A program made the translations under genes and the position numbers. Under the pieces are notes generated by a model, which did not search any database, was not told the DNA's origin, and saw nothing but the letters and a program-made list of their open reading frames with translations. A stretch of DNA of 64,000 nucleotides from Eledone cirrhosa (taxonomy: Eukaryota): the NCBI GenBank assembly GCA_964016885.1, contig OZ024752.1:8866001-8930000 (forward strand). The letters run 5' to 3'. Each line of letters opens with the position of its first letter. The first letter of the stretch is position 1. This document shows, piece after piece, positions 1 to 40,736 of this stretch.

Positions 1-890
1 AAGCGATCCATGTTTACACTTCGAGTCAACATCTTAAACTGTTGATATTACACATCACAGCGGTTTCGTTTCAGTGGCGTAAATAGGTATTCGACAACTA
101 GAAATAGCAGTCAATTCCCTTCAACAGAGTTAGCTCTACAATTAAGGAGCAGTATTATATATCAGGTATAAAAAGGTATATATTTTTGAAGTTCTAGTTA
201 ACTTTATTTATTTGTTACCTACTAGCCATGCGTGGTTACACGCTTATAAAAATTATCTCCTGTGATTTTTCATGTTTATATTTATTTATATATATGTTGA
301 TCAATTCCTAGTTGTTAAAATGCTCGTACTTACAAAGTCCTAGAGCTTATTTTCCGGGCGATATGGCGCATTCCGTTAAGGATTGACACCCATAATTTCG
401 ATTCTGATTGAATTCTTTTAATCTATCTTAATTTTGGATATAGATATATAGATATATATATATATACATATATATACATATATATATATATATTCAGGTT
501 TGAGGTTCACCACTGGATAGAACTGGTCAATTCCGTATGGTCAATCTTAATGTAATAATATGGAGGATACTCAACGTAAAGCAGTTCAACCGTCTTTGTT
601 TTTGTAGTTGGTGGTGCTATTACGGAGTTAAATATTATAATGAAATGACAGGAGGCTGGACTTGTGTAAATCCTTGAAAGGTTTATTTTCAGCCCCATGG
701 ATTTTATTTATTACATTCACTTATTATATTTCGAATACCTGATGATATCACCGGATTCATACGGAACCCGGTCATTGGAAAGATCATAGTATAATAAACC
801 TTTCAAGGATTTACACAAGTCCAGCCTCCTGTCATTTCATTATATTATTATTATTATATATATATATATATATATATATATATATATATA

Positions 891-1087
891 TAGGAAAAAG
901 TATGACCCCGACGGCAGAGCTCAAGCCGTTTCGACGGCTATTTCTAGACTCTAGAAATAGCCGTCGAAACGGCTTGAGCTCTGCCGTTGCGGTCATACTT
1001 GTTCCTAATACCCACTCTACTACCCTAAGTATTGAGTACTCTGGTGCATTATGGTCCATCTGGTTCCTTACCACAATCCCTTCGTTA
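891..1087 (+). mobile_element. Fold-back mini-element in (TA)n, family C copy 1
   Basis: Short inverted arm plus long arm, palindrome centred at 949, both ends in TA repeats. Homologous to 4457, 24049 and 32787. Confidence 0.75.
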
Positions 1088-1232
1088 TATATATATATAT
1101 ATAAAAGTTCTATTTAAATTGTTGGGATACAACAAGCAAATATTTTTATAACTGATATAAAGCACTCAACAAATAATTGGAGTAAAAATACGATATTAAC
1201 AAATGGAAACTATATTTATAAAAACATATTTA

Positions 1233-1293
1233 TTTCATTATACATATTTCAAGGACACCAAGTTAAATTATGGTGTGCTTTCATCAGATAAAA
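1233..1293 (-). ncRNA. Type I hammerhead ribozyme motif (family A)
   Basis: Minus strand: ttttat-CTGATGA-aagcacacca(taatttaact)tggtgtcctt-GAAAT-atgt-ATA-atgaaa. Helices I and II pair, the cleavage triplet is AUA, and helix III is short and near-palindromic. Confidence 0.75.
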
Positions 1294-2108
1294 TATAATA
1301 TAGAGCAGTTTTATAAATAAATATTGACATACCCTTAAAGAATGCAACCATTACTGTTGGAAGCTCTCTTACATTTGGTAATGGAGTAGTTATATAGTTA
1401 TATTTTGTGTTGTTCACTTTCTAATTATATATATATATATATATATATATATATATATATATATATTGACGAAGGACTATTTTTATCATATGTAACCCAT
1501 GTGCAAACCACGCAGTATTCTTCTTTCTTCTCATGTTTTTTATATATATTTACCTCGGCTGCGTTTGTCTGTTTCTCTCTTACTGCTTCCCCGCTCTCTC
1601 TGTTTCTCTCACCTTCTTTCGCCCCCTCTGTCAGTTACACTTTCTCTCGACTGACCTCTTCCTCACACTTCCACTCACTCACTCTATGTTTCTCCCCTTC
1701 TCACTTCCTCTCGTTTGGCTTGTGTGGGCCTCTTCTTGCTCACATCTCACACACATCAACACGGTCTGTACCTCTCTCGCTCATGAAATCCACCCAGCTT
1801 ATGCTGACCAGGACTAACATGTTGCTTGTTTATTTTCCTATCTTCGGTTTGCTTTTATCCTTCTATGTTGTTTACTTGTCCCCCTCGCCTTACGCGAATT
1901 CTGGTCCCAATAACATTTTTTAGTTATTGCTCGCACCAACCTGAGGTATCTGATTTTTAATGCGATGAAATACCAATGATGGTTGGAAAATCACTGACGA
2001 AATACTATTTTTATCATATGTAACCCATGTGCAAACCACGCAGTATTCTTCTTTCTTCTCATATATATATATATTTAATTAGAAAGGGAACAACACAAAA
2101 TATAACTA

Positions 2109-2168
2109 CTACATTACCAAATGTTTCAGGGCCCTAGACAATATGTCTGGATCGGTCATCAGATAGAG
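2109..2168 (-). ncRNA. Hammerhead ribozyme motif (family B), helix II degraded
   Basis: ctctat-CTGATGA-ccgatccagacatattgtctagggccct-GAAAC-atttg-GTA-atgtag. Homologous to the 18661 copy. Confidence 0.5.
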
Positions 2169-2902
2169 ATGTTATGAATAGAAAATAAATGCTTTTTCTT
2201 CGGAATTACCTAAAACATATATATATATAACTTTATCACACACACACACACATATATATATATAACTTTATCACACATACTCACATATATATATATATAT
2301 ATATAACTTTATCACACACACATACACACACACATATATATATATAAAACTTTATCACACACACATATATATATATATATATAACTTTATCAAACACACA
2401 CACACACATATATATATATAACTTTATCACACACACACACACACACACACACATATATATATATATAACTTTATCATATACACACATACATATATATATA
2501 TATATATATATATATATATATATATATATATATGTACAACTTTATCATATACACAGTCACACACACACACATATATATATGTATGTATGTAAAAGGTAAA
2601 CAGAAATAACAACACAATCGGTACAGTATATGGAAGGAATATATTAGGTTAACGCTTGTTATAGCAGGAAGAGGGTCTCAACGTTTCGGACACTAGTCCT
2701 CCATCGGAAGAAAGAATGAGAAATAAGATAGATTGAAGGGCCGGGCGGGGTGCGGTTCTCTACACCCGGAGTCCAAATCCCGCCAGGGACAACTATGCCT
2801 TTCACAATTTTAAGATCAGTAAATAAAGTACCAATCCAGGGTTGTGGACTGGTGGAATTGTTAGAGTACCTTGTGGTTTTTGTGCGTTCTGAGTTGAAAT
2901 AT

Positions 2903-38239: not shown

Positions 38240-38460
38240 TACTTTCAATATATCTTCTTTGCTGGACGAGACCGGGGTTATCATAAGCCAGCGATCCCAG
38301 AGCATCTTCGTGCATAGAGCTCACCAAGTCCACAAGCGCCCTCCATCGCTGGCGGTCCCGTACCAGCTCCTCTGCATCCTCCAAGGTGATGTCAAGCCTC
38401 CGGAGATCTTCCCTGGTGATATCCAGCCATCTAGTGCGAGGCGGGGTCTGTCGTGGGTCC
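38240..38460 (-). mobile_element. RTE-clade LINE 3' relic
   Basis: PRTRWLDITREDLRRLDITLEDAEELVRDRQRWRALV, typical of the RTE ORF C-terminus. Confidence 0.7.
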
Positions 38461-39156
38461 TCTTTCAGCCAGCAGCCGCTCCGTTGAACGAGAGAGAATA
38501 CATCAGCAATGCTGCCATAGTTACTACCTACGTCTCTCTCACTCTTCCTATCTCTCACTATTATAAGCAAACGGGGACCCACGTCCTGGCCGTCCCGTGG
38601 CCCCGGGCGGACAGAATAGAGGCGGCGTTTCCCCGGAGGATGGTGAGGGAGACGTGTTGGAAGAACCATTCCAGCTCACGAGGCTCACACCTGCGGGTAA
38701 CCAGCTTCGTGCCTATGGTGGGGAGTAGGGAGGTGGTTCTAGGGCCAAGGACACCAGAAGTCTCTACTGCAAACCTGTGAGAGAGCGACCGATATTTGAT
38801 TTTCTGCCCAAAGTGCAGAAAATCCTGGGTTAGTCGCAGACTGCACCAGGTAGCCGCTGAGTTATGTCCCTTTACGCTCTGGCTCTCAAATCCTATGAAT
38901 GTCGATTTTACCGTTGATCCTTCTGGAACTCGAGTAAATAATTTGATCAATTTAATCGATAATTAAAAACAAAACGCCCTATGTTAGAAAATTCAAATTT
39001 TCAACGAGTAAAAGATGGAAACTTTACCTGGTCACTCAATCTGCTAGAAATAACAGCCAAATCTCCATCATATCATATAGTTACTCTCCTTTTTGAAAGG
39101 AAGGACTTTTTAAATAATGTTTCTCAATATATCATCATTTGAAGAAAGTTGAAATA

Positions 39157-39662
39157 ACAAGATGAATTGATCTGGGTTTAAACAACAAGATGGATTGATC
39201 TGGGTTTAAACAACAAGATGGATTGATCTGGGTTTATTCAACAAGATGGATTGATCTGGGTTTATTCAACAAGATGGATTGATCTGGGTTTATTCAACAA
39301 GATGGATTGATCTGGGTTTATTCAACAAGATGGAATGATCTGGGTTTATACAACAAGATGGATTGATCTGGGTTTATTCAACAAGATGGATTGATCTGGG
39401 TTTATTCAACAAGATGGATTGATCTGGGTTTATACAACAAGATGGATTGATCTGGGTTTATTCAACAAGATGGATTGATCTGGGTTTATTCAACAAGATG
39501 GATTGATCTGGGTTTATTCAACAAGATGGATTGATCTGGGTTTAAACAACAAGATGGATTGATCTGGGTTTAAACAACCAGATGGATTGATCTGCGTTTA
39601 AACAACTAGATGGATTGATCAGGGTTTAAATAACAAGATGGATTGATCTGGGTTTAAACAAC
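39157..39662. repeat. 27-bp minisatellite, ~19 copies
   Basis: Unit caacaagatggattgatctgggtttaWW. Confidence 0.95.
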
Positions 39663-40338
39663 TAATACAAATAATATTAAAGGAGGGTGAGACGGGAAAG
39701 AACGAAATAAAGAAAGAAGGAAGGAAAAAGAACGAAAGAAAGAGGGAAGGGAAGAACGAAATAAAGAAGGAAAGAAAGACCGGGAGGAAAGAACGAAAGA
39801 AAGGAATAAATAAATAAAGATATATATAAAAAGAAAGAATTTATGAAAGAAAGACAGACGGAAAAAATAAATAAATAAATAATTGTTTCTACTTTTGGTA
39901 CAAGGCCAGCAATTATCCAGTACATTACTGGTACTTTATTTTATCGACCCTGTAAGGATGAAAGGCAAAGTTGACCTCGGCGGGATTTGAACTCAGGATG
40001 GAAAGGGAAATAAATAATTGTTTCTACTTTAGGCACAAGGCCAGCAATTACCCAGTGCATTACTGGTACTTTATTTTATCGACCCCGTAAGGGAAAAAAA
40101 TAATGATATATAAAAAGAAGGAAATAAAGAAAGAAAGAACGAAAGAAGAAAAGACAGGAATAAATAAATAAATATATATATATATATATATATGCAAAAG
40201 TTCTATTTAAAATATATCAGTTATAAAAATATTTACAACAAGTAAATATTTTTATAACTGATATAAAGCACTCGACAAGTATTTGGAGTAGATATACGAT
40301 ATTAATAAATGGAAACTATATTTATAAAACCATATTTA

Positions 40339-40399
40339 TTTCATTATACATATTTCAGAGATACCAAATTAAATTATGGTATGCCTTCATCAGACAAAA
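40339..40399 (-). ncRNA. Hammerhead ribozyme motif (family A), left arm of palindrome
   Basis: ttttgt-CTGATGA-aggcatacca(taatttaatt)tggtatctct-GAAAT-atgt-ATA-atgaaa. Confidence 0.7.
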
Positions 40400-40675
40400 T
40401 ACAATATATAACAGTTTTACAAATAAGCGTTGACGTACCCTATTAAAATACAACCATTGTTTTTGGAAGTAATCCGGATAGTGATTTGTTTATATTACTT
40501 TAATAAGTCATAGTGTTAAGGACAATTAGAAAGGGACGTCCTTTTCTAATTGTCCTTAACACTATGACTTATTAAAGTAATATAAACAAATCACTATCCG
40601 GATTACTTCCAAAAACAATGGTTGTATTTTAATAGGGTACGTCAACGCTTATTTGTAAAACTGTTATATATTGTA

Positions 40676-40736
40676 TTTTGTCTGATGAAGGCATACCATA
40701 ATTTAATTTGGTATCCCTGAAATATGTATAATGAAA
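40676..40736 (+). ncRNA. Hammerhead ribozyme motif (family A), right arm of palindrome
   Basis: ttttgt-CTGATGA-aggcatacca(taatttaatt)tggtatccct-GAAAT-atgt-ATA-atgaaa. Shows compensatory changes relative to the 1233 copy. Confidence 0.75.

Follow-up and report, generated by a model that had tools for sequence, protein, structure and literature searches.

Hammerhead-bearing islands in (TA)n tracts of Eledone cirrhosa as truncated ends of Penelope-like elements, and a conserved hairpin as the probable copying start of Hydra-type families

Introduction

The stretch of Eledone cirrhosa DNA analysed here (GenBank assembly GCA_964016885.1, contig OZ024752.1, positions 8,866,001 to 8,930,000 of the forward strand; 64,000 nt, hereafter the window) contains many short islands with type I hammerhead ribozymes in or beside (TA)n tracts. 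The closest described systems are Penelope-like elements of the Hydra clade, which have been reported to carry hammerheads, to insert into (TA)n and to form inverted copies with a tail on one side, and which include the family Hydra-1_Obim of Octopus bimaculoides (Craig et al. 2021, PMC8557442). Solo truncated hammerheads, opposite-strand pairs, a palindromic helix III, cleavage as dimers and U3-A8 cores are in print (Cervera and de la Pena 2014, PMC4209133), as are inverted repeats, a tail and the idea of antisense self-priming (PMC3846280). In Octopus vulgaris, 31 active Penelope families have been described (PMC13282606). The enzyme of Poseidon from Anolis cuts and extends both strands; its two internal starts on the RNA mark the limits of the tail, and ribozyme cleavage was not needed (Frangieh et al. 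2024, PMC11167929). The choice of the internal start, the formation of the tail and the inverted copy, and the targeting of microsatellites are named as open in PMC8557442 and were partly answered in PMC11167929.

Sequence comparison makes it probable that the islands are 5'-truncated, mostly fold-back ends of Penelope-like elements in (TA)n tracts and that a conserved hairpin at a UA box sets the start of copying in Hydra-type elements. The sources of the islands are four Hydra-clade families, one family of the Neptune/Nematis type, two non-coding tandem retrozymes and several families whose parent was not found (families are labelled F1, F2 and so on; individual loci L014 and so on). The hammerhead islands themselves are ordinary. 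They are of a known kind because their features are already in print, and the suggestion of an earlier sequence-only reading that the TA-targeted fold-back form may be undescribed does not hold: the TA target, the fold-back and solo truncated hammerheads have been published (PMC8557442, PMC4209133, PMC3846280). The new part is the twin UA-box/hairpin module.

With the Hydra clade, the elements share a single frame for reverse transcriptase (RT) and GIY-YIG endonuclease, the signature motifs, a hammerhead near the 3' end, insertion into (TA)n, 5' truncation, an inverted copy and a tail at one end (PMC8557442). In contrast to the elements published there, the families are new, F1 reaches ~4 kb with a 3' untranslated region (UTR) of 1.7 kb (published elements are generally <3 kb), the tails measure 60-160 nt instead of 30-40 nt, and the hammerhead cores include a fixed U4C in F6 and a U3-A8 core with a 5-bp helix III in F9. 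As in PMC4209133, there are many unrelated families per genome, mostly as solo truncated copies, with opposite-strand pairs 100-700 bp apart, a palindromic helix III and U3-A8 variants; dimer cleavage is a result of that paper. The helix III palindromes found here differ in being 6-9 nt long, and the abundance is roughly 2-6 × 10^5 per genome, compared with ~9,000 in Xenopus (PMC4209133) and up to 120,000 retrozymes in axolotl (PMC7229834). F4, F7 and an array in L382 resemble metazoan non-LTR retrozymes (PMC7229834; bioRxiv 10.64898/2026.07.22.740005) in their tandem non-coding units with one type I hammerhead each and a GC content <45%. They differ from these in that F4 and F7, known here from DNA, form short partial tandems and fold-backs in (TA)n, and F7 has a longer unit (~700-770 nt) with Hydra-type hairpins, which give a concrete link to a mobiliser. 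The likeness to Poseidon lies in two internal sites that bound the tail, near a stem-loop and downstream of the hammerhead; unlike in Poseidon, the ends lie at target-matching UA boxes, 5' of a sequence-conserved bulged hairpin (PMC11167929).

Results and Discussion

A UA box and a bulged hairpin at the fixed ends

Most families with enough copies showed two discrete 3' ends, a short one (site 1) and one 60-160 nt further (site 2); F3 showed one. At each fixed end, a UA box is located 7-8 nt upstream of a hairpin that begins with RCUC and ends with GAGY; between them lie an upper stem of 2-6 bp, its loop of 3-40 nt and, on the 3' side, a bulge of two bases of which the first is U. The hairpin was found downstream of site 1 in nine families (F1, F2, F5, F6, F7, F8, F9, F11 and F13) and downstream of site 2 in F1, F6 and F7, and the switch from element to (TA)n occurs mostly 0-9 nt upstream of it. 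Over eight sites, 193 of 529 copies ended in TA at positions -12 to +2 of the hairpin, compared with 1 of 1216 at positions shifted by 30-60 nt; the count is partly circular because the motif was first noticed behind these ends, and to that extent it has to be held against our interpretation. In a motif cluster outside the motif definition, 11 of 20 copies ended there (control 0/10), and two small clusters of this kind gave 2/4 and 1/4.

In most families, ~25-60 nt separate the hammerhead from the first hairpin downstream of it; in F1, the start codon follows the hammerhead after ~190 nt. The second hairpin is located ~40-60 nt ahead of the start codon. In L244, the order hammerhead, site 1, tail, site 2 and start codon is contiguous. 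Three further hammerhead families have this hairpin 42-63 nt past the cleavage site. An abundant repeat resembling a short interspersed nuclear element (SINE) is inserted, with a short target duplication, in F5 and F6 tails near the hairpin (L014, L137 and L215).

The hairpin in distant Hydra-type elements

Metagenome contigs supplied a test set of 77 Hydra-type protein loci, which form 62 clusters at 80% DNA identity; this set was scanned with a hairpin descriptor that had been fixed beforehand. The 43 kb of flanking sequence contained 60 sense and 2 antisense matches, whereas the 136 kb of reading frame contained 14 and 11, respectively. The hairpin was present in 39 of the 77 loci, often twice and ~60 nt apart, between the hammerhead and the start codon. 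Pairs were counted, with no pairing required, on 54 distinct instances after the removal of 15 redundant loci. The first upper pair is of the Watson-Crick type in all 54 and is split between C-G and U-A (swap control: mean 29, maximum 40 of 2000). For the second and third upper pairs, the numbers were 36/54 (control 15) and 31/54 (control 13), and the fourth and fifth were at or near the control maximum. Among 47 instances, the third upper pair was G-U five times and never A-C, which weakly favours sense RNA over an action as DNA or antisense. A TA run of at least 4 precedes the hairpin in 29 of 47 instances and was found in 21 of 178 nearby windows; it starts mostly at -8 or -7. In an alignment of 30 rows picked by the descriptor (28 of the 32 mid-length instances and two window copies), 94.5% of the cells pair and 39 cells carry double changes, a number reached in 0 of 500 shuffles.

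The published Hydra consensus sequences (PMC8557442) were inspected by eye, and four clean hairpins were seen in three of the six, which come from coral and sea cucumber (Hydra-2_Amil, Hydra-1_Ajap twice and Hydra-2_Ajap). No clear hairpin was seen at Naiad consensus ends, where six junctions only were inspected (supplement of PMC8557442). Rfam placed no family on the hairpin in 15 loci, and the main text of PMC8557442, in the passages searched, does not mention a hairpin, stem-loop or microhomology. Nor was the hairpin found in the literature searched, which covers few subscription papers or Repbase notes. As a conserved structure, the twin UA-box/hairpin module is well supported; its putative role as the start signal of reverse transcription is moderately supported.

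Copy ends and fold-back structure

The neighbours of 233 truncated arms of F1, F5, F6 and F9 were classified, each fold-back being entered once per arm. An inverted copy of the same family adjoins 172 of them. The others are next to an inverted copy of another family (5), a same-strand element piece (9), a TA tract (13) or nothing recognised (34). The point of folding back differs between copies. By eye, a short arm is paired with a tailed arm in 13 of 13 F9 fold-backs in which both arms are shown and in all seven two-armed fold-backs of F1, F8, F9 and F11 in the window. In L283, ~200 nt 3' of an F14 end, an F11 fold-back carries a tRNA-like fragment at its centre, which may resemble tRNA-Ala; a template switch is possible there.

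Families and parent elements

The presence of several unrelated hammerhead families, claimed before, was supported. First-look candidates numbered 2525 for F1, 1793 for F2, 1550 for F3, 1315 for F4, 287 for F5, 2414 for F6 and 1589 for F7; these are lower bounds, with 40 scored per family and the best copies 92-99% alike. A Penelope RT/GIY-YIG had been proposed as mobiliser, and copies of F1 (8), F5 (12), F6 (4) and F9 (10) indeed run, on the same strand, into a Hydra-clade frame with RT and GIY-YIG endonuclease. The description of the islands as non-coding retroelements fits only F4 and F7 and is not supported for these four families. From the end of the frame to the hammerhead, the distance is 1608-1722 nt in F1 (eight copies), 932-1220 nt in F5 (12 copies), 663-735 nt in nine copies and 1109 nt in one copy of F9, and ~1450 nt in F6 (L223-L226), so that the hammerheads of the Hydra families sit near the 3' end on the coding strand.

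F1 has a fixed 3' end in (TA)n at 26 of 30 loci and a variable 5' end. Its long copies extend through the 3' UTR into a frame with RT and C-terminal endonuclease; open frames of 743-816 codons were found, in which the motifs of both domains were read directly. Pfam named no RT or endonuclease domains in frames of the F1 type, and no solved structure was matched by sequence to the F1 protein. An F1 RT query returned 52,021 first-look candidates in the genome. The motifs RW(K/R), DKT, CxCX5C and CxxC..E..N..CxH, without CCHH, match the definition of the clade in PMC8557442. The RWK-type N-terminal motif and the change from DKG to DKT are present in F1 and F6, the F5 and F9 copies examined being 5'-truncated; the CxCX5C linker, the lack of CCHH and the CxxC/CxH around a conserved E and N were found by pattern in F1 and F5 and also in F9, and F6 has the end pattern. 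Each motif is present in 32-40 of 40 aligned homologs; one homolog is named to an animal, Argonauta. By these signature motifs, F1, F5, F6 and F9 are assigned as 5'-truncated ends of protein-coding Hydra-clade Penelope-like elements.

F14 was judged to be of the Neptune/Nematis type from its CX2-5CxxC linker and C-terminal CCHH-type GIY-YIG endonuclease (L233); the hammerhead is downstream of this frame, ~180-280 nt beyond the stop codon in 32 copies. F2 was rejected as the owner of the L233 frame, which belongs to F14. Single unrepeated junctions of F3 with frames in L130/L235 and L151/L234 were not accepted, and the frames next to F7 in L228 and L229 were judged to be separate insertions.

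F4 and F7 fit the reading as non-coding tandem retrozymes, as far as their sequences go. F4 forms 433-nt tandem units (three in both L232 and L063) and F7 units of ~700-770 nt (771 nt in L230; two units in L228-L230). Their longest ATG frames have 68 and 53 amino acids, respectively, the GC content is 37-38%, and no linked RT frame was found in 30 loci each. A classical retrozyme array without the start hairpin was observed at L382:4045-9163, where 17 units of 310 nt carry an intact hammerhead each and the orientation flips midway along the array.

Longer copies of F9 have a U3-A8 core with a long helix II and a 5-bp helix III, and at least three more families with U3-A8 cores occur in L334, L348, L351 and L378. 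All 53 F6 hits in a set of 40 loci, 30 of them chosen by likeness to the window copy, carry C at core position 4, and two of these hits show a compensatory change in helix III; in a wider cluster, C is present in 56 of 57. U4C is a natural variant with lowered activity in vitro (PMC3088659). Because F6 has spread with C at this position, a relaxed need for fast cleavage is suggested. No C-to-T change at 29011 was found among the matches listed (40 of 51) of sequencing-run contigs on F6, and these contigs were not used for expression. Six partial matches in contigs of a second organism are diverged pieces of the F6 end (28730-29100). The estimated hundreds of thousands of hammerheads in this genome and the amplification of a family in which U4C is fixed are of secondary interest.

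F12 (window 1460-1545, 1957-2060 and 3813-3915; L388) ends in (TA)n and has two tandem units in L388. Its conserved CUGAUGA-like box is preceded by GAAA at a distance of ~27 nt and is not followed by another. It was rejected as a hammerhead, as no topology could be folded by eye. By eye, its order resembles the end of the published Naiad_Obim consensus (PMC8557442).

Proposed mechanism and alternatives

The hammerhead folds, the link to frames and the two fixed ends per family with a hairpin behind each are observed anatomy, as is the covariation in distant relatives; the mechanism built on them is drawn by analogy with the Poseidon assay. The endonuclease would cut both strands of a (TA)n tract, and the enzyme would grip the RNA by the hairpin, while the 3' end of the cut TA repeat anneals to the UA box 7-8 nt upstream. 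In telomerase RNA, a short stretch that matches the repeat and adjoins a stem bound by the protein places a related reverse transcriptase at the repeat's 3' end; the annealing of box and target would resemble this alignment region. The likeness drawn here is one of function, and the module is not counted as a member; in contrast to telomerase, copying would continue processively into the element. With two modules per terminal repeat, extension of one DNA end would begin at the first module, giving the short end, and that of the other at the second, giving the tailed end, so that fold-backs of a short and a tailed arm are predicted. The two complementary DNAs (cDNAs) would stop early and join head to head to an asymmetric fold-back, rarely with arms from different families. 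The hammerhead likely cleaves only tandem (dimer) transcripts, this predicted cleavage releasing unit-length RNA, and it would stay uncut in the RNA being copied, because hammerheads are whole inside copies. F7 retains both hairpins although it has no reading frame, and would be copied by the enzyme of Hydra elements.

We lean slightly towards a more far-reaching form of this mechanism, in which Hydra-clade RNAs of corals, echinoderms and molluscs share a telomerase-like twin start module and a dimeric enzyme extends both (TA)n ends, which would explain the tail, the fold-back and the trans-mobilisation of F7. If so, the module would be a portable start signal of ~30 nt. Writing of the (TA)n tracts by the enzyme itself through repeat addition is not supported. 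A hairpin and a target-matching box behind both start sites give exact positions to mutate in the existing assay. As a cis signal, the hairpin would connect a retrozyme with the element that mobilises it, and the module bears on the link between Penelope enzymes and telomerase.

Several results weigh against the hairpin as copying start or against the origin of the islands given above. The hairpin is lacking in 38 of the 77 distant loci, many of which are short contigs, and three of the six published Hydra consensus sequences show, by eye, one variant and two cases without a clear hairpin (PMC8557442). In the 30-row alignment, the measure of further pair types was not above shuffles (485/500). 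The UA boxes are weak at F2, F9 and F6 site 2 (3 nt), with per-site p values of 0.27-0.83. Most of the other motif clusters had too few copies, and three pooled rows were confounded by microsatellite or F1 anchors. The hairpin was not found in F14 (0/66), F4 (0/38 and 1/42) and the 310-nt array. As F14 and F4 still end in (TA)n, it is not required for TA targeting in general. Among arms without a recognised partner, TA is present within 45 nt on the 5' side in only 13 of 47 (background 6%). In Poseidon, the start sites were reported to lack homology to the cut DNA and are part of an AC-rich stem-loop (PMC11167929). Finally, no parent frame was found for F2 at 30 loci and four extensions, nor was a parent reading frame found for F3.

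Of the other explanations, the one that survives best is still unlikely: the hairpin might act as DNA or as a barrier, either through resolution of a cruciform by the endonuclease or by stalling the copying of antisense RNA, with a microhomology join to (TA)n. The tail has been ascribed to endonuclease resolution (PMC8557442), a tail requirement for endonuclease recognition in D. virilis is cited in PMC11167929, and self-priming on an antisense template has been argued (PMC3846280). However, the G-U and A-C counts at the third upper pair weakly favour RNA of the sense strand, the invariant letters and the fixed bulge fit recognition by a protein better than a stall, and internal initiation on sense RNA was shown for Poseidon (PMC11167929).

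It is even less probable that, in the terminal repeat, the UA box and the hairpins act as a promoter or as signals for translation and that copies end there only via microhomology of the TA box to the target. A TATA-like box was proposed as promoter in the terminal repeat of a rotifer Penelope (PMC3846280), self-cleaving ribozymes in 5' UTRs can drive cap-independent translation (PMC13725137), and the twin hairpins of the distant loci are located in the 5' UTR. On the other hand, F7 keeps its hairpins without a frame to express, other TA-rich spots of the same ends are unused (the 1/1216 given above), and the spacing is fixed at -8/-7. The form favoured by the sequence-only reading, independent non-coding ribozyme mini-elements with purpose-built fold-backs that are mobilised in trans, agrees with the tandem non-coding F4 (433 nt) and F7 (771 nt) and the parentless F2 and F3, but it is very improbable as a whole and is refuted for five families: F1, F5, F6, F9 and F14 reach their own frames at fixed distances with variable 5' truncation, and the fold-back points vary from copy to copy.

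Hammerheads in the window

The reported type I hammerheads were confirmed by seven descriptor matches in the window (mean 0.03, maximum 1 in 300 local dinucleotide shuffles). A wider descriptor, which allows U4C and U3-A8 cores and longer helices, gave 10 matches (mean 0.23, maximum 2 in 60 shuffles). The bare CUGANGA core was not enriched in the window (27 versus 23.3), and the free folding of seven single window hammerheads was not above shuffles (z -1.5 to +0.5). Of 12 cores previously listed as intact or near-intact, 10 satisfied the wider descriptor (1287, 2162, 19446, 32020 and 40393 on the minus strand; 18667, 22402, 29010, 29741 and 40682 on the plus strand), with C at position 4 of core 29010. 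The other two, 15548 (minus) and 21764 (plus), bear point changes in helix I or III; the consensus folds of their families are intact. Four of five traces described as degraded are decayed copies of families with intact hammerheads elsewhere, namely 739 (F8), 2675 (F3), 8636 (F11) and 22155 (3' half, F13). For the fifth, at ~4165, no fold was demonstrated: the island (4160-4290) is a repeat with a core-like box and no GAAA, and its single relative in 1.9 Mb is L359:5436-5640. Four F9 fold-backs with the 3' half of a U3-A8 hammerhead and the decayed F14 copy had been overlooked. The self-complementary helix III was borne out, as all eight segments tested form paired dimers (-1.7 to -11.2 kcal/mol), with no fold in the monomer. 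Exceptions are F9 and F11, in which helix III is a monomer helix of 4-5 bp (4 bp in intact F11 copies) and not of the self-complementary dimer type. Rfam gave no hammerhead family among the matches listed for the window (150 of 251, E≤1); its microRNA matches were rejected as microsatellite or fold-back artefacts with scores under gathering.

The hammerhead density, which had been suggested as a possibly undescribed feature, is 0.16 per kb in the window, close to the 0.13 per kb in a genome sample of 60 stretches of 10 kb at round coordinates, in which small contigs are over-represented. The sample contained 78 descriptor matches in 600 kb, including 17 from one array and five low-complexity false positives in L359, compared with 2-11 in ten shuffles; 73 of the matches score at least 12 (bootstrap 39-119). 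A rough extrapolation to the 3.0-Gb assembly yields 2-6 × 10^5 hammerheads. (TA)n makes up 12.3% of the window and 3.5% of the sampled stretches. As a landing site it was confirmed, a TA tract being present ≤250 nt 3' of 54% of the 78 sampled hammerheads and of 14% of random positions.

Features of the window are compiled in Table 1. At 1095-1431, F1 and F2 arms lie in one insertion between two TA tracts. At 18560-19560, ~590 nt of (TA)n separate two F2 copies whose 3' ends point towards each other; this mirrored pair is not a Penelope fold-back but reflects either an inverted duplication or an artefact of the assembly.

Table 1. Element ends, fold-backs and retrozyme-like units in the window
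Feature	Position	Strand	Description
F8 fold-back	500-849	both	tail and start hairpin 569-628 on left arm (minus); decayed hammerhead (core 739) and short end in (TA)n on right arm (plus)
F9 (Hydra clade) fold-back	884-1085		both arms with 3' half of U3-A8 hammerhead; short left arm; tail and start hairpin 1014-1037 (plus) on right arm
F1 (Hydra clade) 3' end	1095-1364	minus	intact hammerhead core 1287-1281, tail, start hairpin 1164-1183
F2 3' piece	1371-1431	plus	joined head to head with F1 arm
F2 end	2072-2170	minus	near-intact hammerhead, core 2162
F3 end	2578-2752	minus	decayed hammerhead
F9 fold-back	4450-4630		tail and start hairpin 4507-4530 (minus) on left arm; short right arm
F14 (Neptune/Nematis-type) end	7411-7604	plus	decayed hammerhead core 7449; family without start hairpin
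F11 fold-back	8476-8699		minus arm with decayed hammerhead core 8636, tail, start hairpin 8552-8570; plus arm short
F3 end	15420-15596	minus	hammerhead core 15548, helix I damaged
F2 end	18651-18765	plus	intact hammerhead core 18667, short end in (TA)n
F2 end	19348-19462	minus	identical mirror copy of 18651-18765 including non-element flank
F4 retrozyme-like unit	21755-22066	plus	core 21764, one helix III change
F13	22152-22206	plus	3' half of hammerhead related to F2
F5 (Hydra clade) end	22314-22504	plus	intact hammerhead core 22402, short end in (TA)n
F9 fold-back	24050-24269		left arm with tail, right arm short
F6 (Hydra clade) end	28730-29097	plus	core 29010 with C at position 4, short end in (TA)n
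F4 pieces	29138-29996	both orientations	intact hammerhead core 29741 (plus)
F7 retrozyme-like unit	31664-32150	minus	intact hammerhead core 32020
F9 fold-back	32780-32985		short left arm; tail and start hairpin 32907-32930 (plus) on right arm
F1 fold-back	40188-40786		tail and start hairpin 40270-40289 on minus arm (core 40393); short plus arm (core 40682)

An inverted pair of tRNA-like or SINE-like sequences was seen by eye beside a TA tract at 10637-10870. Outside the window, a 492-codon frame with a C2H2 zinc-finger array is located at L225:7440-8915, ~5 kb from an F6 insertion. The window further contains long minisatellite arrays with units of ~40-80 nt, which are unrelated to hammerheads (5350-7230, 33600-35810, 42500-45610, 48300-50410 and 50800-52880).

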